This document shows positions 49,655 to 64,000 of a stretch of DNA of 64,000 bases, in pieces; within the stretch, counting starts at the first letter, position 1, and every line of letters begins with the position of its first letter. A program made the position numbers and the translations under genes. This DNA is from Gemmatimonadota bacterium (GTDB lineage Bacteria > Gemmatimonadota > Gemmatimonadetes > Gemmatimonadales > GWC2-71-9). The notes under the pieces were generated by a model that saw nothing but the letters and a program-made list of their open reading frames with translations, was not told the origin of the DNA and did not search any database. The stretch lies in contig JAZDCY010000012.1 in assembly GCA_036679645.1 (NCBI GenBank), forward strand, positions 97,206 through 161,205, read 5' to 3'.

Positions 49655-50602
49655 CTACAGCGAATCGATGAACTCCTCCATGCGCCGACGCAAGCCTGCG
49701 TCGGGTAGGCGTCCCCTGATAGCACCGATGTTGTCCACCACGTGCCTCAGTTGCCGCGTGCCCGGAATGGGGCAGGTGACCGCCGGATGCGCAATCAGGT
49801 ACTTCAGGAAGAACTGACCCCAACTCGCGCAATCGAACTCGGCCGCCCACTCGGGCAGTGGCCGGTCTCCCACCGCTCGAAACAGCCGGCCGCGCCCGAA
49901 CGGCAGGTTGATGAGCACCGCCACGCCGCGGTCGCGTGCGGCAGGCAGGATACGCTCTGCGGCACCGCGGTTCAACAGTGAGTAATCCACCTGCACGAAG
50001 TCCATTTGCTCATTGGCGAGCGCGTTCTCCACCCGCTCGTACTGCCGGTCGCTCGAGGTCGTGACGCCGACATACCGAACGCGACCGGCCTGCTTCCATT
50101 CGCGTAACGTCGCAAGCTGTGTTGCGGTGTCGCGCATGTTGTGCACCTGCATGAGATCTACGGTATCGGTCTCGAGCGCCTCGTATGACGCCTCCATCCG
50201 CTCGATCCCGGCTTCACGCCCCTCGCGGTCCACCTTGCCGGCAAGAAAAATGTCGTTGCGCGCGCCGAGCGTGCTCATGATATCGCCCAGCACGTGCTCG
50301 GAATTCTGGAACGACCCGGTCTCGCGGTCGATCCTGTTCCCGTATGAAGGGGCCGTGTCGATCACCTTGCCGCCCAACTCGAGAAAACGCCGCACGGTCT
50401 CCTGCAATGGCGCCAGCGCCTCCGCGTTGGGAATCCCGTAGTTCCTCGTCCCTATCCCAACGGCCGGGATCATCTCTCCGGTCGAGGGAATCGGCCTCGT
50501 GATCAGATCGTCCTGCCGGCCGAGTGCCGGCCGCCATCCCGCGGCAAGCGCCGCACCGGCGCTCGCCCCGACTTTGAGGAGTTCTCGGCGCGTGAGGGTC
50601 AT
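49655..50602 (-). CDS. Aldo/keto reductase with Tat signal
   Basis: TRRELLK; IDTAPSYG, DLMQVH, G.VRYVGV, IPGT. Confidence 0.9.
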   Translation of the reverse strand: MTLTRRELLKVGASAGAALAAGWRPALGRQDDLITRPIPSTGEMIPAVGIGTRNYGIPNAEALAPLQETVRRFLELGGKVIDTAPSYGNRIDRETGSFQNSEHVLGDIMSTLGARNDIFLAGKVDREGREAGIERMEASYEALETDTVDLMQVHNMRDTATQLATLREWKQAGRVRYVGVTTSSDRQYERVENALANEQMDFVQVDYSLLNRGAAERILPAARDRGVAVLINLPFGRGRLFRAVGDRPLPEWAAEFDCASWGQFFLKYLIAHPAVTCPIPGTRQLRHVVDNIGAIRGRLPDAGLRRRMEEFIDSL

Positions 50603-50698
50603 TGCGATGTCCTCCGAGTTTTCTTGTCGTATGTGGGGTCTCGCCTACCGATCCATCGACCGCTTGCGGAGCGCCCGTCAGGGCTCTTCTTATACTAC

Positions 50699-51820
50699 AT
50701 GACTCCCATTCCTCTGCGGCTCCGGTCTCTGCGCCCTCTCGGGTTCGCCATCATGTTCGCCGCTGTCGATGCAACCTCCGGTTGCGATGCTCCCGACGAC
50801 GTTCTCTTCGTCCCCCCGGTGGTCGAGCCGCTCGAAATCCGACCGGGCGTATTTCGCATCACCTACAACCGGGACGTCGATGTCGTCCGTGGTTTCACGC
50901 CCGACGGGACGCGCATCGTCTACCGCAGCCGCGGGCTAGCGGGGTTCGGCGAGGGCTGGCGGATACTCAGCGTGCCCGTGGACGGCGGGCAGGTTCACGA
51001 GGAGGCCGCCATCTACCGACAGGCACTCAGGTCACCTGTGGGGCATCTTCTCATCCAGGGAGACCGCCGTGTGCTGGTGGTCTGGCGCCGGGAGGCCGCC
51101 GGCGCGGAGACCTGCAAAGGCTGCCCCGGCCTCCCGGTCATCGGGTTGTCGATACTGCGACTCAATGCGGCGGACGGCGCGCCGCTCTCCGCGTTTCCCA
51201 CGCGTTCTCTGTTCCTGCCCAATCACGCGAGCACGTCGCCCTGCGATCACCGCGTGCGACTGACCCCGACGGAGCGGGAGGTGGTGGACCGCGGAGTCGA
51301 TCCATACGGACCCGTAATCGCTCCGAACACCAGCGTCGGCGTGTACTCGGATGGCGATGTGTTGTGGCGCTTCGACCTCGACGACCCGACGGTGCCACGT
51401 GATTCCATTGGAACGGGCGCCTTTCCGGCGCTCTCGCCAGACGGCACGTTGCTCGCAGCCGCGATTCCTCTGGGTGCTGACAGCGTATCCGATTTCTGTT
51501 CGTTTGGTCTCTGTCCGTGCATACAGGAAACCGTCACCATCACGGCGTCCGCCTGGAGCGTTGTCGTTCACGATCTGACGGGCGGCACCGTAGATACCGT
51601 CGCGTCCGGTATGGAGCCGCAGTTCGCGCCGGATGGATCCCGCCTGCTCGTGCGCCGCATCGACGCGCTGTACTGGATTGACCTGTCCAGCGGTAGTGAG
51701 GAACTCATCGCCGGAACGTCGGGAGCGTACGCGCCGCGCATTGCACCCGACGGATCGGTGCTGGCTTTCTCGACAAGCCTCGACGGCAACCCCGACGTGT
51801 TTTTCGTGCGGGTGCAGTAG
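50699..51820 (+). CDS. TolB-like/PD40 beta-propeller exported protein
   Basis: Repeats FTPDG, LSPDG, FAPDG, IAPDG. Confidence 0.7.
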   Translation: MTPIPLRLRSLRPLGFAIMFAAVDATSGCDAPDDVLFVPPVVEPLEIRPGVFRITYNRDVDVVRGFTPDGTRIVYRSRGLAGFGEGWRILSVPVDGGQVHEEAAIYRQALRSPVGHLLIQGDRRVLVVWRREAAGAETCKGCPGLPVIGLSILRLNAADGAPLSAFPTRSLFLPNHASTSPCDHRVRLTPTEREVVDRGVDPYGPVIAPNTSVGVYSDGDVLWRFDLDDPTVPRDSIGTGAFPALSPDGTLLAAAIPLGADSVSDFCSFGLCPCIQETVTITASAWSVVVHDLTGGTVDTVASGMEPQFAPDGSRLLVRRIDALYWIDLSSGSEELIAGTSGAYAPRIAPDGSVLAFSTSLDGNPDVFFVRVQ

Positions 51821-52002
51821 TCAGGCGCTCAGGAGAAGGCATAGGATCATACCGAACCCAACGCACGTCCCGAGGCGTGTGTGCCGCGATCAGCGCGCCG
51901 AGCCGGGACTTCACCCAGGACACGAGAACGGGGGCGGGCAACCTTTGACACGATTTCACTTGGCACGCACATTATGCATAGAAGCTGGAGGGAGAATCCC
52001 CT

Positions 52003-52674
52003 ATGCGGTTCTCGGGATTACCACCGATTGCATTGTTGTGTCTTACCGAACTCGGTTGTGGCGCTCAGCCGTCCGCACCGACACCGGGCCCCCCGGCCGC
52101 GATCCGCGCCGAGGCCGGAAACAACCAGACCGTCGATCCCCGAACATCGCAGCGTCTCACGACCCGTGTCACCGATGCACTGGGAACACCCGTTCCCGGT
52201 ATCGCGATCTCGTGGGATCTCTTGACCGGTACCGGCACGCTGGAACCGCGCACCGGCACCACCGACATTGGGGGCAAGACGTCCACGACGCTGTTCCTCA
52301 CCACCAAGCCATCGAATCGGGAGGTACGCGCAGCCGTCGTGGCCGACTCGACGCTCCGGGTCACGTTCACCGTGCTGGTCACAGGCCCGTCAGGCGCAGA
52401 GGAGCCCGATGTTGTAATCGCGGTGGGGGACAACTTCTTCCGGCCAAACTCTGTGTCCGCCGGTGTGGGGCAACTGGTGGAGTGGCGCTGGATAGGTACG
52501 ACGTTACACAACCTCGTCTTCGACGACACGACTCTGTGCGTGAGCCCTCGTGGTACCCGGCCGTGCCGGTTCTCCGTGGACGGGACGTGGAGGCATCGTT
52601 TTCAGCAGGCAGGCACTTTCGCGTACCGTTGCACATTGCATCTGGAGCAACGCGGGACCATCATCGCGCACTAG
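52003..52674 (+). CDS. Ig-like + cupredoxin (plastocyanin-like) putative lipoprotein
   Basis: ELGC after signal; VTDA.G.PVPG Ig-like; F.P, V.W, HN, AGTF.YRCTLH. Confidence 0.72.
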   Translation: MRFSGLPPIALLCLTELGCGAQPSAPTPGPPAAIRAEAGNNQTVDPRTSQRLTTRVTDALGTPVPGIAISWDLLTGTGTLEPRTGTTDIGGKTSTTLFLTTKPSNREVRAAVVADSTLRVTFTVLVTGPSGAEEPDVVIAVGDNFFRPNSVSAGVGQLVEWRWIGTTLHNLVFDDTTLCVSPRGTRPCRFSVDGTWRHRFQQAGTFAYRCTLHLEQRGTIIAH

Positions 52675-52723
52675 GAAATAAGGATTAATCGCCGCATCCA
52701 GGCGCCGAGGCAACGCTGGGACC

Positions 52724-53100
52724 TCAGCGTGATGGCACAGCCACGCGCAGCCGTCGCGCCTGCGTTGCCAGTGCCTTGTCCAGCGTCCAGAGCGATGCGC
52801 CCGCGATGAGTGCCGATGCGAGAAGGTGCGCATCGATCCATCCGATCCCCGTGCCCGCCAACGCGCGGCGCTCGACGAGCGCGAGCACCTCATGGTGTTC
52901 AGCGACGGGCGCTCCCGGGAGATTCTGCAGGTAGCCAAGGATCGTAGCTCGTGCCCGGAGGTTGCCGCACGCCAACTCCCCGAACACGAACGGGTGCACG
53001 ACCACCCGCCCGTGCTCCAGGAGATGAACCAGCTCGCCCTTTCCTTGCCGAAAGTGCTCAACCCAGACTGAGGTGTCGGCGAGGTGTCGGCGAGGATCAC
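52724..53100 (-). pseudogene. vapC: VapC PIN-domain toxin, frameshifted by an 11-bp tandem duplication
   Basis: MILADTS then shift; LADTSVWVEHF, GELACG, GIGWIDAHLLASA, LWTLD in the other frame. Confidence 0.88.
53070..53095. repeat. 11-bp tandem duplication
   Basis: GAGGTGTCGGC GAGGTGTCGGC GAGG. Confidence 0.95.
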
Positions 53101-53306
53101 CTGGGCGTACCGCGCCTGCCCGAACGACGACGCGGCACACTCCGCAGCGACCGCTCCGTCCCTCCCAGGGCCGCGAGCCGCCGCGCGCTTTCGCGAGCGA
53201 TGAGCGCCTCCAGTCCCGCGTGCACCAAGGCCGTCTTCTCGCTGATACGCGTGAGCTTGCGAGCGCGAGCAAGCAACTCGTCATCGATGTTGATGGTCGT
53301 TCGCAT
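53097..53306 (-). CDS. vapB: VapB antitoxin
   Basis: MRTTINIDDELL...KTALVHAGLEALIARE.ARRLAALGG; GTGA overlap with vapC. Confidence 0.9.
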   Translation of the reverse strand: MRTTINIDDELLARARKLTRISEKTALVHAGLEALIARESARRLAALGGTERSLRSVPRRRSGRRGTPR

Positions 53307-53335
53307 ATGTATCAGCATGCACATTTGATACATAT
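53305..53335. promoter_or_regulatory. Palindromic operator at the vapBC start
   Basis: ATATGTATCA-N11-TGATACATAT perfect 10-bp inverted repeat. Confidence 0.75.
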
Positions 53336-53454
53336 TGATCAAGGTTCCTGTCGCGGCTGCAAGAGACGATACCACAGCGCCCCGGCGCGAATGTCATCAC
53401 TTCGATGCACAAGAGGCGCATGCGCGTGCGTCAGTTACTCTCTACGAGACAGGT

Positions 53455-53946
53455 CTACGGCACCACACGGAATGCGTTGGACGCCCGCTCGTTGAGCGGC
53501 AACGGCATGGGGGGATCCGCGCTTGAGTACAGGTCCATCGTGATGCGATATATTCCGCCCACATCCAGCGGCGGGCTCCCGGGCCAAGCCCCGAAGTCTA
53601 TCCCGCCTGCGATGGTGTCTCGCCACACGGCGTCGAGCAACTGGTATCCGCACTCGGCGAACAGATTGTCCGGCTCCCACACCGCGTCCCGCCAGGCAGA
53701 TCCGTCCCACGACTGTACGCCAAATCCGAACGATGGGGGACAGTTGTACCAATAGAGGGGCGCCGACTGGAGCGCCACCGCCCGGAAGTTGACCGGCCGG
53801 TCGCCCGAGGCAGAGTAGACCGAGTCGGCGGTCTCAATGCGCACGATGACTGGCGCCGCCCTTTGTGGCAGCGGCTCGAGCGGCTCGCCGCACGCCGAGA
53901 ACAGCGCGACGACCAACACCCCGATTGCCATGTGCTGCAGCGTCAT
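53455..53946 (-). CDS. Hypothetical lipoprotein
   Basis: Signal ending LFSAC. Confidence 0.6.
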   Translation of the reverse strand: MTLQHMAIGVLVVALFSACGEPLEPLPQRAAPVIVRIETADSVYSASGDRPVNFRAVALQSAPLYWYNCPPSFGFGVQSWDGSAWRDAVWEPDNLFAECGYQLLDAVWRDTIAGGIDFGAWPGSPPLDVGGIYRITMDLYSSADPPMPLPLNERASNAFRVVP

Positions 53947-54099
53947 AGGAATCCCCCACCACTCTGCCGCGGGCAGTACGAGCCCGATCAGCTAAGTCCG
54001 ACACTTGCAACCATACCCGCGGGCCCACGCGTCGTGCCCTGCGGTCTCTTCAGGACCGCCTGCGTGACGAGTCCCGTCCCGCGCGGTAAGCTACTACCC

Positions 54100-54840
54100 A
54101 TGAAGCTCGACTTTCGCGGTAAGACGGCGCTCGTCACCGGAGCATCCCGGGGAATCGGACACCGCATCGCGACGGACCTCGCGGCGTGCGGGGCAAAGCT
54201 GATCGTCACGTCGACCACACCGGAACCGGGAGCAGAACTGGTTCAGGAGTTTGGGCCGGACACGCAACACGTCGCGGTGGATTTCGCCGACCGCGCGAGC
54301 ACTTCAGACTTCCTTGTATTCGTCCGCGCGCTCCCAGACCTCCACGTGTGCATCAACAACGCCGGAGCCACTCGGCACGGCCCGCTAGAGGAAGCGTCGG
54401 AGGAGGATTGGGACCTGACCAACGACGTGAACCTCAAGGCGCCGTTCTTCGTGAGCCAGGCGGCGGCCGAGGTAATGAAACGGGGTGGCTACGGTCGCAT
54501 CGTGAACGTGGCCTCCATCTGGGCTCACATCACTATGGCCGGCCGGTCCATCTACACGGCCACCAAGTTCGGCCTGCGCGGTCTGACGCTGAGCTACGCG
54601 CTCGAGTTGGCACGAGCGAACGTGTTGGTAAACGTGGTTTCACCAGGATTCACGCTGACGGACATGGTGCAGCGTAACTACTCCAAGGAACAACTGGCCG
54701 AGTTGGAGTCAAGCATCCCAATGGGACGCCTGGGGACCGTCGACGACATCTCGCGCGCCGTGTTGTTCCTGACGAGCGATCTCAACTCGTACATCACCGG
54801 ACAGAGCCTGGTGGTAGATGGGGGCTACAGCATCACATGA
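54100..54840 (+). CDS. SDR oxidoreductase (FabG-like)
   Basis: TGASRGIG, NNAG, YTATK, VDGG. Confidence 0.9.
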   Translation: MKLDFRGKTALVTGASRGIGHRIATDLAACGAKLIVTSTTPEPGAELVQEFGPDTQHVAVDFADRASTSDFLVFVRALPDLHVCINNAGATRHGPLEEASEEDWDLTNDVNLKAPFFVSQAAAEVMKRGGYGRIVNVASIWAHITMAGRSIYTATKFGLRGLTLSYALELARANVLVNVVSPGFTLTDMVQRNYSKEQLAELESSIPMGRLGTVDDISRAVLFLTSDLNSYITGQSLVVDGGYSIT

Positions 54841-54945
54841 GCCCGAACGACACGCTCCGCGTTTCACGCGACTCACTGTCCACGTGGAACCTCTACACCA
54901 CGCCGCAAGATGTGCACGTCGAGACGGGCCGCGGGTGCCTCGTTT
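54837..54945 (+). pseudogene. Truncated gene coupled to the SDR
   Basis: ATGA overlap; about 36 GC-rich codons (...VHVETGRGCL), then an abrupt AT-richer promoter region. Confidence 0.45.
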
Positions 54946-54962
54946 CTCGTCGACTAGAATTC

Positions 54963-54991
54963 TTGACCTACCACATTTTGCGTTGTACATT
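54963..54991 (+). promoter_or_regulatory. Sigma70-like promoter upstream of the pyrE leader
   Basis: TTGACC-17 bp-TACATT. Confidence 0.6.
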
Positions 54992-55084
54992 GGTAACCCA
55001 ATGCTGCACATTGGTTTAGGGTCTTGCCCCAACACGCACCAGCTCCCACTGGAACAACCGATTCGCGTTATCGTAGTTTCTTGT

Positions 55085-55129
55085 AGAGGCGCATGACGCC
55101 TCTCTCATCAAGATGTCGGCGTTTTTTTT
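55085..55129 (+). terminator. Attenuator-like alternative hairpins with T8 tail upstream of pyrE
   Basis: AGAGGCG-CATGA-CGCCTCT competes with ACGCC(55096-100)/GGCGT(55118-122) + T8. Confidence 0.6.
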
Positions 55130-55145
55130 GTAGCTAGGAGAGAAC

Positions 55146-55733
55146 GTGAGCCCCAGAAATCAAGAGCTCTTGCAGCTGCTGAGGTCCCTCGCATACCAAG
55201 AGGGTAAGTTCGAGCTCTCTTCCGGCGGCGAGAGCGATTACTACATAGATGCAAAGACCGTAACACAGCACCCAAGAGGTGCGGAACTCGTTGCTGAATC
55301 GATTCTAGAGCTCCTGCAACGGTACAAAGTGGAAGCCGTCGGCGGACCAATCCTTGGAGCAGTTCCAATCGCCACAGCGGTTGCGATGTTGTCCGGGCAG
55401 AAGGGGTCACCGCTTCCGGCATTCTTCGTACGCAAGGACGTTAAGCCTCACGGACTTCACAAGTGGATCGAGGGTCGTGTTCCGAACGGTGCCACGGTGG
55501 CGCTTGTCGACGACGTTATCACGTCCGGCCAATCGGTAATCGAGGCGGTGAACCGCGCACAGCAAGCGGGCTACAACGTAGCAGTAGTGATCGGCCTGGT
55601 CGATCGTGAATCGGGTGGACGTGAGGCAATCGAGTCTCTGGGTATCAAATACGAGAGTGTGTTCTCCATCGCCGATTTGCGCTCGCGCAGCATTGGGACA
55701 GCCAGCAATCCGCAGATGCCTGCACATGCGTGA
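55146..55733 (+). CDS. pyrE: Orotate phosphoribosyltransferase
   Basis: F.LSSG..S.YYID, GGP.LGAVP, VRK..K.HG, VDDVITSG, VDR; SD AGGAG. Confidence 0.92.
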   Translation: MSPRNQELLQLLRSLAYQEGKFELSSGGESDYYIDAKTVTQHPRGAELVAESILELLQRYKVEAVGGPILGAVPIATAVAMLSGQKGSPLPAFFVRKDVKPHGLHKWIEGRVPNGATVALVDDVITSGQSVIEAVNRAQQAGYNVAVVIGLVDRESGGREAIESLGIKYESVFSIADLRSRSIGTASNPQMPAHA

Positions 55734-56046
55734 TGCCGTCAACCCGTCCAATCCTTGACGGAGGGTTCTCCGCCGATACCCTCGAGCGGATCAGCACCCA
55801 ATGCTACGATGACGACGAATCGGCCGCCTTTCCGGTGGCCGTCGTCGTTTTGGCTCACGTCACGGGATCCATCGCCAACGACCTACGCGACCGGCCCGTA
55901 GACACTGACGAGTCGAGGCAGTTAGGACACCCATCGAGCCACCAGTCTGATCGCGCTTGGAGGCAGTGCCGGCGAGGCGCAGCTGCGACGTGGCGGAGCG
56001 AATGTCGATCCTGTCGCATGCGTTCTTGGTATGGCGGGAGAGTTGA
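55730..56046 (+). pseudogene. Small hypothetical gene coupled to pyrE, probably frameshifted
   Basis: Overlapping start; protein-like for about 65 codons; a plausible C-terminus (...ILSHAFLVWRES*) lies in another frame. Confidence 0.3.
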
Positions 56047-56212
56047 CCAATCCGGGCTGGTATCTCTGTTAGAAGACAACTTGCTCCGGGATGAAGGATG
56101 CTCAAATCGGAGACACCTAAGTGGTTGGTACGAAAGAGGCGCCGGGCAGACTCGGATCCGGCGTCGCGAGCCGCCAGGCGAGCGACAAGGACGAGGACGC
56201 GCGGCGCCAACG

Positions 56213-56241
56213 CAAACGGGCCCGCATGCGCGGCCCGTTTG
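56213..56241. terminator. Strong hairpin, likely terminator next to the tRNA remnant
   Basis: CAAACGGGCC-N9-GGCCCGTTTG. Confidence 0.7.
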
Positions 56242-56264
56242 AGAGGCGAATAGAGGTTTTGCAG
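56241..56264 (-). other. tRNA-Cys(GCA) 3' fragment, putative att site
   Basis: Minus strand CTGCAAA-ACCTC-TATT-CGCCTC: anticodon loop, 3' anticodon stem, variable loop and acceptor end; T-arm absent. Confidence 0.6.
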
Positions 56265-56508
56265 TTCTGTCCGACCCTTGCATTATTGTCCCGCCGTTTC
56301 GTAAACCGCTGTCGCTCCAAGACCTTTGAGGAAGCGTCCCTTGCGCCGGTTTGCGCCTCGTTGCATCCCTTGACGACACAACCTTCCCAGAATCTTCCCA
56401 CCCGACCGATCCACAACGCGGTGGATCGCCGGGCCGCAGACGTGTGCGAGGCGGATGATGACCCGCCGTCAGTAGGGTGGGTAGCTACCTGAGGAGAACT
56501 CCCCCAAG

Positions 56509-58584
56509 ATGTCCTCGAGAAGGCACAACGACACACCAGCTCCAGGCAGCCCGCACGGTCCGGGAAACCCGCACCCACTCTCGACGCTCAAGACGGAGTT
56601 GGTGTGGGAGGGAAAGTACGACGAGTTCGGCAACCGCCGGGAGGTTGACGCGGCCGGGCTTGCCATGCCTCTCCAACGCATTGAGACGGTGGATGAGCCC
56701 CGCGCCCGCACAGAAGCGCAAGGAGGTCTGTTCGATACCAAGAAGGCACACCTCGATGACTTTCGGAACATGCTCATCTGGGGCGATAACAAGCTCGTGC
56801 TCGCGTCGCTTCTGAAGAGCTTCCGCGGCAGCGTGGATCTCATCTATATCGACCCACCTTTCGATGTGGGCGCCGACTTCAGTATGAGCGTCGGCATTGG
56901 TGACGGACGTGAACTGACCGTCAAAGAACAGTCGGTGCTGGAGATGGTGGCGTACAGGGATACGTGGGGGAAAGGAACCGACTCCTACCTCCATATGCTC
57001 TTTGAGCGACTAGCATTGATGCGTGACTTATTGAGCGAACGGGGAACCATTTTCGTCCATGTCGGTTGGGAAGTATCACACTACGTGAAGGGCGTCCTGG
57101 ATGATGTGTTTGGATCGAACCACTTCCTGAACCAGGTAATCTGGAAGCGCCAGACTGCTCACAGCGACATTGGCCAGGGCTCCCGGCACTTCGGCCGCAT
57201 ACACGATGTGATCTTCCTCTACATGAAGGGCGATGAATACACTTGGAACATGCAGTACACACCCTATTCGGAGGAGTATATCGACTCGTTCTATAAACAC
57301 GTTGAGCCCGAGACGGGACGCCGCTATCAACTCGGCGATACGACCGGACCAGGTGGCGCTGCGAAAGGGAACCCGCACTACGAGTTCCTCGGAGTCACCC
57401 GCTACTGGCGATTCAGAAAGGAGCGGATGGAGGAGCTGTACAGGCAGGGACGAATTGTACAAACATCACCCGGAGCGGTTCCCAGACAGAAACGCTACCT
57501 TGACGAGATGCAGGGTGTTCCACTCCAGGATCTTTGGCTGGACATCAACACCGTTCAACCGCAATCGACCGAACGCGTGGGCTATGAGACGCAGAAGCCC
57601 GAAGCCCTGCTGGAACGGGTCATCGAATTGAGTTCTAATCCCGGTGATCTGGTGGCGGATTTTTTCTGTGGTTCTGGAACTACAGGGGCGGTCGCCGAGG
57701 CTCTCGGCCGTCGTTGGATAATGGCCGATCTCGGTCGCTTCGCTGTTCATACGTCCCGCAAGCGGATGATCGAAATCCAGCGCAAGCTCCATGGCGGGGA
57801 AAAGCCGTACCGAGCTTTTGATGTGTTGAATCTCGGGCGCTACGAACGCCAGTGGTGGCAGCGCGAGCACCTGAAAGGCGCGGATGAAGAGCACCGACGT
57901 GTAGTGTTGGAGTTCTACAAGGCTGAGCGCCTGCCGCAATCACCTTCTCCGCTGATCCATGGACGCAAGGGATCCGCGCTTTGTCATGTGGACGGCATCG
58001 ACAGCATCTTCACGCGAGAGGAAGCGAAGGCGGTCGCGCGCGCCGCGAAGGGGGCCGGTGGCAAGGAGGTCGCCTGCCTCGCGTGGGAGTTTGAGATGGG
58101 TCTACGGATGGTTTGCGACGCGCTGGAGCGGGAACTAGGCGTCCGCATCAAACTCATCCAGATCCCACGAGAGATCATGGAGAGGAACCGGAAGGAACCT
58201 CCACCGTTCCTTGAAGTCGCCACCCTAGAAGCAGAGCCCGTCTACAGGACCGTGGATGGGAAGCGCACGGTAGACATCAAGCTCGAACGGTTCATCCCAT
58301 CCCTCGCTGAGGTCCCCACAAAGGAACTCGAGGCACTCCAGGAACGTGCCGTCAAGAGCGGTTTCGACTTCATCGACTTCTGGGCGGTGGACTTCGACTA
58401 CCAGAACGGGGGCCCCTTCAATCACCACTGGCAAGACTACCGCACACGGAAGGACCGATCACTCAAGACGGTCTCTGAGCAGGCTTACACCTATCCCAAG
58501 AAGGGACACTACTCAGCCTGCGTGAAAGTGGTGGACATTTTCGGGTGCGACACATCCATCTCCGTCCCAGTGGTCTGTGCCTGA
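56509..58584 (+). CDS. mod: Type III R-M methyltransferase (Mod)
   Basis: LIYIDPPF (motif IV) before TQKPE and DFFCGSGTT (motif I), beta-class; long C-terminal extension. Confidence 0.9.
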
Positions 58585-61500
58585 CACAATCGTCAACCCC
58601 GCGGCCCTCGAACCGCTCTTCGGTCCATCGGACGTCCCTAACCAGCATCGCGTTCGTGCGGAAGTCGCGGGCGCTCAGGCGAAAGCGGTGAACGGGCGGC
58701 GGCCGACAACGATCGCGATCGCCCAGAGCTTGAGACGCCACGTCGCCGAGTGGCGCGAGGCGCAGTACGGTGGCGCCTCGGATACGACGATCGAGCTTCT
58801 GCACCACTGGTTCCGAACCGATCACGACGTCCAGGGCCCAGACGGGATTCAGATTCCCTTCAGCTACTACTTCTGCCAGCGCGAGGCGATAGAGACACTC
58901 GTCTATCTGTATGAAGTGCGGGGCGTTCGTACCCTCTCCGGCCTTACCGCGGAATTCGGCGGGCCCGATAGCGAGATCGCGGCGCTCGGGACCAGCCCGG
59001 ATGAAGACCTGTGGTCACGCTATGCATTCAAGGTGGCGACCGGCGCCGGCAAGACAAAGATCATGAGCCTCGCGATCGTGTGGAGCTACTTCCATGCGCT
59101 GCGCGAATCAGACTCGCCGATGGCGCGCCACTTTGTGATCATCGCGCCTGGCATCACCGTTTTTGAACGGCTCAAGGAAGATTTCGGCCACGGCCGAATT
59201 TTCGATCGGGACCCACTCATCCCGAGCGCCTGGCGCGGAGACTGGAACGTCTCGGTGGTTCTCCAAGACGAGGCGGGTGGGGCAGCGACCGGGGGGGTAG
59301 TCTACCTCACGAACATCCACCGGCTCCGCGACCCGAAGGCGCGACGGGGCAAAAACGCCGAAACTTACGACTTCATGGGCCCGGCAGTCTCCAAGGCGAA
59401 GGCGTTAGACACCGCAAAGGCGCTGCGGGACCGGATCACGTCGCACCCCCACCTGATGGTGTTGAACGACGAGGCACACCACGTCTGGGATCCCGAGTCC
59501 GCGTGGAACGAGGCCATATCCTTCCTGCACGAGACTAGCCGCAAGCGCGGCGGGGGGCTTGTCGCCCAGCTCGACCTCTCAGCTACACCGAAGGACAGCA
59601 AGGGAAACGTTTTCCGTCACGTCGTGTGTGATACCCCGCTCGGCGAGGCCGTAGATGCGGGCATCGTGAAGACGCCAGTCATCGGACATGGGGACCAGTT
59701 GGTCGAACGCGCCCACGCGGACGCTGCCTACAGGTACGAGAACCACCTCACGCTCGGCTACCGTCGGTGGCTCGCCTCGATGAAGGAGTGGGAGAGAAGC
59801 GGGAAGAAGGCGTTGCTCTTCGTCATGACCGAGAGCACAGCGGCGGCCGACCAGATTGCCCATCGGTTGAATACCGATCCCTTCTTCAGGGAGCTGAACG
59901 GGAAGACTGTCAATCTCCATACGAATCTGAAGGGAAAGCTCAAGAAGCGCGGTCGCGGAGCGACAGCCTACTACGAGTTCATCGAGAACGAGAAGAGCAT
60001 CAGCGACGACGACCTGCGCGAGTTGCGCAAGCTTTCGCGAGAACTGGACGACAGCACCAGTCCCTACCGCTGTATCGTCTCAGTGTTGATGCTGCGTGAA
60101 GGGTGGGACGTGAGGAACGTCACGACGATCGTTCCGCTGCGCCCGCTTTCAGCTCAAGCCAAGATCCTTCCGGAACAGACACTCGGACGTGGCCTGCGCC
60201 GCATGATCCCTGCCGGTACCGGACAGGTAGCCGAAGTCGTTACGGTGGTCGAGCATAGAGCCTTCCTGGATTTGTACAAGGGGGAGTTGAGCCAGGAGGG
60301 GCTACCGATCGAGGTCGTGGACATCGACAAGGTCCCCCGCACGACCGTCACGATCTACCCCGACACCCAGAACAAGGACCTCGAGAAGCTCGACATCCTC
60401 ATCCCTCGGCTCTCACCTGGCTACCGGATCGATTCCTCGCTGGATGCGCTCTCGTTCGACGAGGTAGCGGAGTCTTTCTCCAAACAGTTCAAGCCGCTAC
60501 CACTCGGCACGCGGTCCAAGGACGAGATCAAGTACGAAGGCCGGCACATGATTACCCCACCTGCTCACCGACGGCATGGGGGCCATCTCGTTCTTTCGGG
60601 AAGAGCTTGAGCGAGCCGCCCGAATCCGGGGACAGCACGCGACCCTGGCGCCGCATATTCAACGATTCCTAGAAGAGGTCCTGTTCGGCCAACGTGTGGA
60701 TCTGTACGACCCTCGGGTCGTCGGCCGTCTTTCGGACCCCGACGTACGGGAGCACATCCGCGCCACCTTCCTGCCATTGATCCTCAAGAGCATCACGCGC
60801 CGCAAGGATCGCCTGCCCGAGGAAGCGCCGCGATCGGTGACGGCGTGGGCTCCGTTCCAGGCAACCCACTCCGAGCGACGACCGACGGAAAGCTCGGCTA
60901 GAACCGCGTTCAACCTCGTGCCATGCGACAACCAACTCGAAGTCGCGATGACACAGTTCCTTTCGTTCGCCGGCGACGTCGATGTCGCCGCGTTCGCAAA
61001 GAACTCCGGACCCCAGGCGCTTCGTATTGACTATCTCAACGCCGAAGGAAGGCGCGCGACCTACACGCCGGACTTTCTTATCCGGAAGACTGACGGTCAG
61101 TACCTGCTGTCCGAGACGAAGGGACGCGCGGACCGGGACGTGGCTGCCAAGGCACGTGCGGCCGTTGAGTGGTGCAAGGCAGCCTCTTCCAAGAAGGTGA
61201 AGTGGGAGTACCTGTACGTTCCCGAAAAGGTATTCGAGCAGGTGCGGGGGAACTCGGTGGAGGAACTCGCGCGGGCCTGCGCACCTGCCCTGGTTCAGCT
61301 ACTCAAGGATGCCGCTACGCCACAGCTCGCCCTCAACTTCGAGGCGGGTTCAGAGGAGCGCCTTGCCGAGCAGACCCAGGAGTTCATCGACGCGAAGGTG
61401 CTCGCCTCCCTTCCGTCTCGCTACCGAAAGGCAATCGAGCACGCTGTCGCCCTCTTCCACTTTCACAAGCAGAAAGAGAAAGTCTCGTTCGGCCCAATCT

Positions 61501-61967
61501 TCCAGCCGTTGCTGGGACCGATCGACCACGCCGCGGAGGCGCTGATGTTGAAGCGGCTCGGGGAGGAGGTACCGTCGGAGGCCGAGGCACAGAAGCACTT
61601 CTTTGAACCCGACATGGCCCGGACCAAGAAGTCGAGTATCAAGTACCTGACGGAGAGAGCAAACACCCTTAAGAAGCTCCTAGTCTATCGAAGCCCTCTT
61701 ATGCCCACGGGCGCCCTGTCATTCTGCTTCGACTATGCCGCTAAGGTCGCCGAGGAGCCATTGCCGGGTATTTATGCTGCGGTCCGGGGACGGTTCGCGG
61801 CAATGTCGGGCACAGGCCTACCGAAACGCGTTAGAGAAGTCTACGACTTCCGGAATACCTACATCGCACATGAGAAGGTGGTGCTCAAGGACGCGGCGAC
61901 GACCCGGGAGGCGCTCGGTCAGTGGATTGATACCCTCGTCGCCCTTCACGAAGCGGCCGCCAGTTGA
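58577..61967 (+). pseudogene. res: Type III R-M Res (SF2 ATPase + PD-(D/E)xK + C-terminal HEPN-like domain), split by a frameshift near 60555
   Basis: ATGAGKT, DEAHH, SATP, LREGWDV, QTLGRGLR in ORF 58577-60610; YTPDF...ETKG and FRNTYIAH in ORF 60576-61967. Confidence 0.85.
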
Positions 61968-62098
61968 GTGTGGGCAACGTCTCAGCTAGCGGACGGCCTC
62001 GAACGTCCTTAGGCGGCACGGGCTGTCGCCCCTTCAACCATGAGTGCAGATTCATCACGTAGCTGAGATACAAGGCGGCGCCCAACCTGCTTCATCGT

Positions 62099-62956
62099 GT
62101 GATGTCTCAGATCCCAAGGCAGGTATTGTTTGGCAGGCGAGGGGAACGTCTCATAGACGTAACCGAGGCCGTTCGTGGCCTCTGTTGCGACTGTACCTGT
62201 CCGGCGTGCGGTGAGCAACTCGTGGCCCGGAAAGGGCCGATCATGGCCCATCACTTTGCTCACTACGGATCCACGAGCTGCCACGAGCCACCGGAACTCG
62301 CCATTCTTCGAGCCGCCGCTGAGGCAGTCGGGAGCGCTGGGTCGATTCGCCTTCCCTCGGTGTCTCTCGAATTCGAGAGCTACAAAGACCGCTGGACTAT
62401 TTCGCCGGCCGTTGAGGTACCTGTCTCGGCGGTAGAGGTAACGTCGCTCTTCGAGACCGCCGAGCAAGGTCTGGCCCTAACGGTTCGGGGCAAGACTCTC
62501 TTTGTTCACCTCCGCTTTCAGGGTGAGGTTGGATGTCCGTTTTGGCAGCACGCTCACGGGTTCGACTCCTCACTCCTCGATGTGGCGGTTGAGCCTGTTG
62601 CGGCAGAACCCACCATCGCCAGAATCAGTCAAGTACTGGTGCATGACGTCGACTCGAAAACCTGGGTGTTCAATTCACGTGCTGCACGCGCCTTCCGGCA
62701 GGTGACACGGACGGCAAGTCGCCTCCGACATGTGAAGCGAGGCCTGGCCGTACACGTTGATGGCTGCCCAAGGTCCGTCCGCAGTTGGCACGGCAAGCCG
62801 TACGCAAATGTCTTGGATGATTGCACCCACTGCCAATCCTGCGTGTCGGTGGGCTTCGTTTCTGGAAAGGATGAGGTCCTCTGTCTGGGGACCACTGCCT
62901 TCCCAACATTCGATAGCTGGAAGGCGCGTGAAGGAATGCCGCCCGACACGCGTTAG
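62099..62956 (+). CDS. CoiA-like zinc-finger protein
   Basis: CTCPACGEQLVARKG...HHFAH...C; C-terminal Cys cluster. Confidence 0.6.
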   Translation: MMSQIPRQVLFGRRGERLIDVTEAVRGLCCDCTCPACGEQLVARKGPIMAHHFAHYGSTSCHEPPELAILRAAAEAVGSAGSIRLPSVSLEFESYKDRWTISPAVEVPVSAVEVTSLFETAEQGLALTVRGKTLFVHLRFQGEVGCPFWQHAHGFDSSLLDVAVEPVAAEPTIARISQVLVHDVDSKTWVFNSRAARAFRQVTRTASRLRHVKRGLAVHVDGCPRSVRSWHGKPYANVLDDCTHCQSCVSVGFVSGKDEVLCLGTTAFPTFDSWKAREGMPPDTR

Positions 62957-63125
62957 GAGCTGGACGAGCACGAACATTTACAAAGGAAGCCTGAGAATTG
63001 TGCGCCGGGTGGGGATAGTAGACGTTCTACCGAGTATCGCTTGTGCAAGGCGAGCTTCGGCTTACTCGTACTTCGGCGAGTCACCGGTAGCTCAAACACA
63101 CGTCCGTTAGGCGGCCACCAGCCGG

Positions 63126-63704
63126 ATGACGTTGTCAACACCGAACACGATTCTCTGGCACTACAGCCAGACCCTGCGCCGTTGCGTAGCTCGCGTGCAT
63201 GCTACCGAGGACGGCACTCAGCAACGGCAGGAGATTGTCGTCTGCATTCTGCTCGCGGTCACGCTCGTCGAAGCTTTCTTGAATGTTTACTTCCGAATCC
63301 TCGTCTCAAATGAGGAGTTTACGTCCCACTGCGGATGGCTCCTTGAGGACCTGCGACGCCGACGGTCTCTCGACCACAAGATCGAAGTATGGCCGGAATT
63401 GATCCTTCGCAAGCGCCTGGACTTCAGCACGGGTGCAGCACGCGACTTCAAGGTCCTCAAAGAGAGACGCAACGCGTTGATGCACTTCACGAGTAGCCAT
63501 ATAACTCTGGATGCGCTGGGCGATCTCACTTTCCATGGATTGGCGGACACGAGCGCATTCGACGAACTCACGGCCGCTCATGCGGCGGACGCGCTGGAGG
63601 CCGCCGAAGGGATCATTTGTGAAATCTGGCGGCTCCGAGGCATACCGGAGGAGTCATTGCCGCACATGCTCCATCAGTGGACCGGCAGAATGGCGGCCAC
63701 ATAG
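63126..63704 (+). CDS. Stand-alone HEPN-like protein
   Basis: Helical; VEAFLN helix; RNALMH (Rx4H). Confidence 0.6.
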   Translation: MTLSTPNTILWHYSQTLRRCVARVHATEDGTQQRQEIVVCILLAVTLVEAFLNVYFRILVSNEEFTSHCGWLLEDLRRRRSLDHKIEVWPELILRKRLDFSTGAARDFKVLKERRNALMHFTSSHITLDALGDLTFHGLADTSAFDELTAAHAADALEAAEGIICEIWRLRGIPEESLPHMLHQWTGRMAAT

Positions 63705-63813
63705 TGAATCGCCCCGGGATTGCCGGAGACTCCATTTCTTGAGAGGACGGAGTCACGGGAAAGCCAAAAGCCCATATTCGCCGGAGGTTCGTGAGCCGGC
63801 GGTGCGGATGGTC
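63705..63813 (+). mobile_element. IS3-family (IS6110-like) left end with degenerate orfA start
   Basis: TGAATCGCCCCGGGATTGCCGGAGACTCC IRL; YSPEVRE.AVRMV orfA-like codons; ATG position reads ACG; truncated. Confidence 0.8.
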
Positions 63814-64000
63814 CGGTAGCCACGGTCGTGCCAGACATCGAATCCCGCCCAGTCCCAATGAATGAACGCGCTCGACAAGTCGGTTTGCGGAGTTATTATC
63901 GAAAGTTGTGGATTGGAGGAATGAGAAAGGCGGCGTATCCTTTCGTGTAGTCAGTTGAAACTCACACGAAATCCGGTTGTGACGACCGGAGAAAGGACAC

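Follow-up and report, generated by a model that had tools for sequence, protein, structure and literature searches.

A Type III Restriction Subunit with a C-Terminal Domain of Predicted HEPN Ribonuclease Fold

This study concerns a restriction–modification (R-M) locus of type III at positions 56509..61967 of a 64,000-nucleotide stretch of a Gemmatimonadota contig (JAZDCY010000012.1), referred to below as the window. The locus is a Mod–Res pair of two genes, in which the restriction subunit, Res, continues past its nuclease domain into a long helical tail. The analyses described here address the conservation of this tail, its predicted relationship to HEPN ribonucleases (RNases), and the role that such a domain might play at the end of a DNA restriction motor.

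Results

Organization of the Locus

The features of the locus are as follows; tail residues are numbered within the tail.

56509..58584, + strand: mod, type III modification subunit, 691 amino acids (aa); beta-class amino-methyltransferase with DPPF, then FFCGSGT
58577..60556, + strand: res, 5' part, superfamily 2 (SF2) helicase/ATPase motor with ATGAGKT and DEAHH motifs
60556..60557, + strand: frame break, 32 bases missing relative to a contig of sequencing run X1 (contig comparison, homolog junctions)
60557..61319, + strand: res, helical spacer and PD-(D/E)xK endonuclease domain (sequence, PADLOC, homologs)
61062..61124, + strand: nuclease motif YTPDF...ETKG (sequence, conservation)
61341..61967, + strand: all-helical C-terminal domain of Res, about 210 aa, of predicted HEPN fold (predicted model, structural matches)
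61524..61526, + strand: tail residue D69, acidic and invariant, located in helix 2 (230/230 tails)
61851..61871, + strand: R178-N179-x3-A-H184 (Rx5H), motif predicted to form the RNase active site (R, N, and H each in 229/230 tails)

Mod matches PADLOC MTase_III (E 4.9e-226) and Pfam N6_N4_Mtase (E 4e-44). The GTG start of res at 58577 shares 8 bases with the 3' end of mod, and the 5' part of res, which is 84% identical to residues 3-660 of an intact homolog (P0006), matches Pfam ResIII (E 1.3e-11) and PADLOC REase_III (E 1.7e-18). In library searches, type III Res models match both of the pieces into which the frame break divides res in the window, and the nearest curated model, NCBIfam NF046055, whose cut-off is 800, gives 208 bits on one piece and 49 bits on the other. 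Among full-length homologs the motor is well preserved (Walker A in 95/97, DEAH in 96/97), as is the nuclease, with ExKG in 97/97 and the catalytic D, E, and K of the PD-(D/E)xK domain kept in 97/97.

The segment FRNTYIAH (61848-61871) lies in the same frame as YTPDF...ETKG. From the E of ETKG to the Res stop at 61967 there are 284 residues, and the last 215 residues of Res (P0003) are predicted to be entirely helical. An earlier reading of this DNA, made by a model from the sequence alone, had described a type III Res that continues for more than 200 helical residues beyond the nuclease motif and had recognized R-N-T-Y-I-A-H as an Rx5H motif; both descriptions hold. Its statement that Res ends in FRNTYIAH needs correction, since 31 more residues follow H184 and form one further long helix.

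Conservation of the Tail and Its Polar Residues

By itself an Rx4-6H motif in Res is not above chance and proves nothing, because the pattern occurs seven times in the Res of the window (excluding one match created at the junction of the two pieces); it is conservation that carries the weight. A search with the tail as query gave 131 proteins, 120 of which were listed (set 1), and these were mostly intact ResIII proteins of 1,130-1,165 aa. Because conservation counted in proteins found by their tails would be circular, a second search was made with the core only (residues 90-915) of the weakest listed set-1 match, which comes from a cyanobacterium. Of its 7,595 matches, the best 120 were listed, and 119 of those were new (set 2). 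A tail of at least 150 residues was present in 113/119 of these core-found proteins; the six excluded proteins comprise five with cut tails (31-142 residues) and one without the nuclease. Counts for set 1 use 117/119 proteins, two having been left out for an incomplete tail.

The set-2 tails (n=113) have a median identity of 33% to the tail of the window. D69 is nevertheless present in 113/113 of them, and R178, N179, and H184 in 112/113 each. Over both sets D69 reaches 230/230 and R178, N179, and H184 each reach 229/230, so the conservation of R and H on which the earlier reading had made its proposal depend was borne out; no more than four further polar positions attain 90% in the 230 tails. 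In HEPN RNases the upstream acid often belongs to an Ex3[KR] pattern; in the tails, the residue four positions after D69 is K or R in 113/113 of set 2 and mostly E (96/117) in set 1. Identity to P0124 is 38% in the tail versus 67% and 52% in the core. By sequence comparison, then, the tail diverges faster than the Res core yet retains D, R, N, and H, and at the same level of comparison these residues fit the definition of a HEPN active site: Rx4-6H, a polar residue after the R, and an upstream acid. It is important to note that the motif count obtained from genomic loci (83/85) is not evidence of conservation, as the scan pattern contained the motif.

Named carriers of the tail include members of the cyanobacteria, Planctomycetota, Actinomycetota, Anaerolineae, Zixiibacteriota, Acidobacteriota, and Eiseniibacteriota; some of the cyanobacteria that encode an intact protein are in culture (Synechococcus sp. 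C9, Parathermosynechococcus lividus PCC 6715, and Thermoleptolyngbya). Within the phylum of the window, searches detected relatives of the nuclease region in 31/401 genomes and the tail in 2/401, namely the genome of the window and one with a fragment. The latter (locus L006, genome G142) is an isolated piece of tail that includes RNxxxAH, with no res or mod within its 3 kb, and is probably a remnant.

Predicted Fold of the Tail

No family in Pfam, PADLOC, or NCBIfam matched the tail at E 1 or better. An AlphaFold model computed from 112 sequences is all-helical, with a predicted local distance difference test score (pLDDT) of 95 and a predicted template modeling score of 0.90. In this model the Rx5H motif closes the penultimate helix, and one last long helix follows. 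When the model was compared by VIA-align with 48,161 representatives of the Protein Data Bank (PDB), ranks 1-4 were all HEPN RNases: RnlA (7aex; Z 9.7, root-mean-square deviation 3.2, 141 residues aligned), an RnlA mutant (6y2r, Z 8.8), LsoA (5hy3, Z 7.7), and Csm6 (6tug, Z 7.3). HEPN-superfamily proteins, recognized from their titles or from Table 1 in PMC3710099, account for 13/50 of the rows shown. The earlier reading had made its proposal depend on a HEPN fold, and the model supports that fold with moderate strength; the closest structures are RnlA and LsoA, not the PrrC that it had named.

Weaker hints come from three sources. The Pfam families HEPN_AbiU2 and HEPN_Apea are the two commonest among the members, with matches in 11/61 (best E 0.004) and 4/61, respectively, and an Atlas cluster in which 11% of members carry RnlA-toxin_DBD scores 0.90.

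These results have to be set against the reading that the tail is some other helical bundle with a look-alike motif, and several observations weigh against the HEPN reading and, in part, for this one. Besides the absence of a match to curated families, the tail matched nothing among PDB sequences at E 0.001 (one sequence and two profiles), and a Foldseek search of the PDB gave no match at E 0.001, with Csm6 at rank 11 (E 0.61). The best non-HEPN row of the VIA-align comparison reaches Z 7.0, and the tool deems helical bundles safe only from Z of about 13, a level below which Z 9.7 falls and which makes the score modest for a helical protein. The Atlas recognition value of 2226 lies under the line of 2300, which makes that score weak. 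Since a Z below about 13 may reflect a common helical arrangement, the ranking and the enrichment carry the weight, rather than the score: four HEPN RNases stand at the top of 48,161 chains, and HEPN-superfamily proteins recur further down the list. In addition, the motif closes the penultimate helix, a long final helix comes next, and an invariant acid lies upstream, all of which speaks against an unrelated bundle. Taken together, the model and its matches indicate that the tail very probably adopts a HEPN fold, and an unrelated bundle appears very improbable.

Relationship to RnlA

The tail is likely RnlA-like in shape without being a member of the RnlA family, according to the model and the profile comparisons. 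Family membership was considered and rejected: against 16 RnlA-family sequences, hhalign returned a probability of 0.24 and a score of 13.9, and a profile–profile comparison with RnlA alone gave a probability of 0.19, which is not significant. Neither of the RnlA HEPN profiles, PF19034 and PF18869, matched any of the members (0/61). PF19034 also gave nothing above its cut-off in 301 genomes of the phylum, a result that is uninformative because the control matched 0/14 genomes.

By eye, helix 2 of the tail (SFGPIFQPLLGPID) can be aligned with RnlA DYCMLLYPELRTIE, which places D69 on E258; this register was set by eye, the profile match not being significant. Two points count against the relationship. 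The hhalign score lies within the range of shuffled controls (mean 13.3, maximum 16.5), and R255, which is essential in RnlA, appears by eye at a near-invariant glycine of the tail (G66). R255 is not general in HEPN proteins and likely makes a dimer or substrate contact, and RnlA requires a canonical HEPN dimer (PMC8266594).

RnlA and LsoA are mRNases aimed mainly at viral mRNA (PMC3710099), and their standing as the closest structures raises the question of whether the tail acts alongside restriction, cutting phage transcripts near the recognized DNA while the cell survives. Fusion to Res would bring an RNase to unmethylated DNA at the place where two Res meet. Against this stand the absence of the TBP-like domains of RnlA and of RnlB, the lack of a sequence-level tie to RnlA, and the behavior of other R-M-linked HEPN proteins, such as PrrC, which hit host RNA as a second line. 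Such a co-acting role is considered quite unlikely.

Integrity of the res Reading Frame

In the window, res is interrupted at 60556/60557. A contig of run X1 that crosses the operon (depth 97.6) holds 32 extra letters between these positions and is otherwise identical to the window from 56247 to 63734; together, the run X1 contigs span 50000-64000 (14 kb) with no other letter or gap difference listed. Translated by hand, the 32 letters restore the frame and yield the residues of the homolog P0007, which reads ...YEGRHLITDEVVERMNIKLHLL... across the break. The frameshift is thus probably an assembly error that is not present in the organism, and the repair of the gene that the earlier reading had foreseen before any assay is probably unneeded.

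Alternatively, a 32-base deletion may have truly broken res in this organism, leaving a methylase-only relic. The window sequence itself has the break, and a minority deletion allele could go unseen, as assembled contigs drop rare variants. The region was found in one public run, X1, which supplies a second assembly, perhaps of the same sample, rather than a second sample. The dominant contig nevertheless contains the 32 letters, no deletion-bearing contig is among the run X1 pieces listed (a listing that left out 40 pieces), and all catalytic motifs are intact, which together make a genuinely broken gene improbable. The search of public runs listed no RNA run holding the region.

The Tail as an Addition to Res

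From 29 loci fetched from genomes of the phylum, 21 usable Res proteins were obtained as a sample of more distant relatives. Of these, 20/21 stop 53-86 residues after ExK, compared with 279-313 residues in the tailed group; the remaining one has a domain resembling peptidase S24 in place of the HEPN tail (L098:1930-3347), and an AbiJ_NTD4 gene follows it. In a midpoint-rooted tree of 439 columns, 24 tailed proteins, which had been picked by mutual similarity, form one clade with a support of 0.915. Judged from these comparisons, the tail is a domain added to Res. Single members carry a further module behind the HEPN tail, a TIR_2 domain in P0040 (E 8.8e-20) and a peptidase S24 domain in P0140 (E 6.5e-7), and the C-terminal end of Res thus gathers accessory modules.

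Genomic context was assessed in 85 loci, 80 of which are the best 80 of 215 metagenome matches. Nuclease and tail share one reading frame in 64/67 loci having enough upstream DNA, the helicase shares it in 44/47, and mod lies upstream of res in 37/38 loci with at least 4.5 kb of upstream sequence. In the 48 loci with at least 1.5 kb downstream, no neighbor family recurs in more than four, antisense frames of mod aside. The conserved unit is mod plus res, with no conserved antitoxin or third gene. A stand-alone tail could not be established among 32 short matches, which lie mostly on short contigs; short tail open reading frames (ORFs) in the loci are cut by a contig end, split from the helicase, or fragments. 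Other architectures may exist beyond the proteins covered. No match to the tail was obtained on plasmids. It occurs on two viral contigs (L087 and L088), and L087, which has enough flank, shows the usual mod–res layout. L002 and L087 share a related large gene immediately downstream of res, and L043 and L045 are two mod–res–HEPN units on opposite strands of one 78-kb contig.

The near-universal presence of the tail in its clade bears on a reading in which the domain is purely architectural. Here the HEPN-fold tail would dimerize two Res, or bind nucleic acid, in support of double-strand cutting; the conserved residues would form an interface, and RNA cutting would be absent or incidental. A tail fixed across the clade (113/119) with no accompanying antitoxin would suit a structural element no less than a toxin, HEPN domains do dimerize with the motif at the dimer face, and type III cleavage needs two complexes. 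Yet 20/21 of the more distant Res relatives have no tail of any kind, and whereas non-catalytic HEPN domains typically lose Rx4-6H (PMC3710099), no polar residues of the tail are better conserved than R, N, H, and D. A role as a structural element is thus regarded as unlikely.

Discussion

A Possible Mechanism for a Predicted Fused RNase

Set against the properties of known HEPN enzymes, which are metal-independent endoribonucleases, the conserved residues predict that the tail is an active RNase, a proposal we consider likely. How such an activity might be controlled can be approached from the assembly states of the two partners. The HEPN RNase site assembles at a dimer face (PMC8266594), whereas type III enzymes are Mod2Res1 complexes that cut DNA in an ATP-dependent manner at inverted unmethylated sites, for which one sliding complex has to come into contact with another (PMC8259958). 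Because a HEPN domain needs a dimer and each type III complex contains one Res, the tail would most likely be silent within the complex. For other R-M-linked HEPN proteins it has been proposed that the R-M complex keeps them inactive and that its failure frees them, as in the case of PrrC (PMC3710099).

In the model that follows from this analogy, Mod would methylate host sites, and unmethylated DNA would be cut when two Mod2Res1 complexes meet, as in the known families. The HEPN active site would form only where two Rx4-6H motifs come together in a dimer, and the tail would stay silent while each complex holds one copy of Res. The RNase would be switched on when two Res are held together abnormally, as when two complexes meet on foreign DNA and stall; alternatively, an anti-restriction protein or host shut-off might free Res from Mod. 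Once activated, the Res dimer would cleave RNA of both the cell and the phage, halting the infected cell. By analogy, we lean slightly toward such a latent back-up or abortive RNase, off in monomeric Res and on when Res pair abnormally or escape Mod. One consideration speaks against it: ordinary cleavage meetings, if they formed the RNase, would harm the cell each time restriction succeeded, and extra control would therefore be needed. That the pairing of two Res switches on a fused HEPN RNase in a widespread type III clade is a more far-reaching proposal and a rather doubtful one. If true, the state of a restriction motor on foreign DNA, with two complexes meeting or stalling, would be converted directly into RNA destruction within one polypeptide, with no need of an antitoxin or a second messenger.

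The Linker Peptide

Between the nuclease domain and the tail lies a further feature.

61323..61340, + strand: QLALNF, a hexapeptide of the linker that is similar to a sliding-clamp-binding motif (a lead only)

QLALNF matches a hexapeptide clamp-binding pattern (bioRxiv 10.64898/2026.05.27.728225). A linker of the form Q-phi-x-L-x-[LF] is found in 74/117 close homologs and in 0/112 of set 2, where the linkers (n=112) include 92 words resembling L-P-L-F and 6 cases of the pentapeptide; cyanobacterial members have QDLPLF-like words at this position. The linker is modeled at low pLDDT and equally could be a hydrophobic latch. If Res–Res pairing is the switch of the RNase, a clamp-binding-like linker might further couple this to replicating DNA.

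Surroundings of the Locus

Two ORFs follow res on the same strand. The first (62099-62956, +; 285 aa) matches the CoiA N-terminal zinc-ribbon domain (E 1.9e-7) and, weakly, DruB (E 0.026), and is a possible defense-island nuclease. The second (63126-63704, +; 192 aa) is helical, contains RNALMH (Rx4H), and weakly matches PADLOC RTasHEPN (E 0.022); it is possibly a second, stand-alone HEPN protein of the island. It is not conserved beside res in the other loci, and its single-sequence model (pLDDT 53) is too poor for use. Upstream, at 52724-53375 (-), lies a small gene pair that we take to resemble a VapBC (PIN) toxin–antitoxin module. The run X1 contigs break at 56164-56247, just 5' of mod, multi-copy sequence (depth about 480) starts near 63900 (63890-64000), and the G+C content drops after 55000 from about 0.65 to 0.56-0.62; together, these are possible edges of an acquired island.

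Significance and Precedents

Arguments for a suicidal back-up to R-M systems date back to 2012, and the case they work through is PrrC, encoded by a gene of its own within a type I locus. The tailed Res family offers a compact, two-gene test of this idea in type III enzymes, as DNA cutting and predicted RNA cutting reside in one chain and are separable by single substitutions. The requirement of HEPN domains for a dimer, beside one Res per complex, gives a specific and testable activation model. The family also adds a HEPN group that is missed by Pfam, NCBIfam, and PADLOC, and more than 200 listed proteins are labeled only as helicase or type III enzyme.

The concept itself has clear precedents. 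Makarova et al. stated in 2012 (PMC3506569) that HEPN domains are part of many R-M systems of types I and III, and Anantharaman et al. in 2013 (PMC3710099) described recurrent fusions of HEPN domains to nucleases and helicases of R-M systems, together with the back-up hypothesis; parallel cases and background are found in PMC3632139, PMC12839542, PMC11090510, PMC4490356, and bioRxiv 2024.10.26.620412. No type III Res carrying an RnlA-like HEPN domain at its C terminus is named in the sections, Table 1, and short supplement of PMC3710099 that were covered; Figures 4 and 5 of that paper may show the family. No literature on the tailed family was found, with the proviso that subscription papers mostly fell outside the scope and may hold it. 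A coupling of HEPN domains to R-M systems, those of type III among them, had thus been put forward in 2012-13, and the tailed Res family and its architecture appear undescribed and unannotated. The earlier suggestion of an under-described type III architecture stands as far as the family is concerned, which was not found in print, and overstated the novelty of the idea (PMC3506569, PMC3710099).

Comparison with Known Systems

In its basic plan the system is a type III R-M enzyme like EcoP15I and its kin (the nearest curated model, NF046055, being the BPTD_3080 family): it is a mod–res pair with a beta-class methyltransferase, and its Res combines an SF2 ATPase with a PD-(D/E)xK nuclease. It differs in the length of Res, about 1,130-1,150 aa in the tailed family, owing to about 220 extra C-terminal residues.

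RnlA and LsoA, the top structural matches of the tail, share with it Rx4-6H and an upstream acid as well as a helix-2 pattern that is similar by eye. The tail, however, has Rx5H where RnlA has Rx4H, its domain is about 45 residues longer, and it is fused to a DNA restriction motor, behind the PD-(D/E)xK domain. In addition, tailed Res proteins are without TBP-like domains, and no rnlB antitoxin gene is conserved downstream.

With PrrC and RloC the tailed Res shares a HEPN RNase tied to DNA-level defense and a proposed role as a second line. PrrC, in contrast, is a separate ABC-ATPase–HEPN gene in a type Ic locus, and the tailed family has its HEPN domain joined to a type III Res and lacks an ABC-ATPase. 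Related in concept are the HEPN fusions to R-M helicases and nucleases (DUF4145 with a restriction endonuclease or SF-II helicase, Swt1-like with a DUF499 ATPase, and the CoCoNuTs), in which, as in the tailed Res, HEPN stands on the restriction side and never with the methylase. The back-up hypothesis is common to these fusions and the tailed Res, whose tail differs in that their Pfam HEPN models miss it at their cut-offs.

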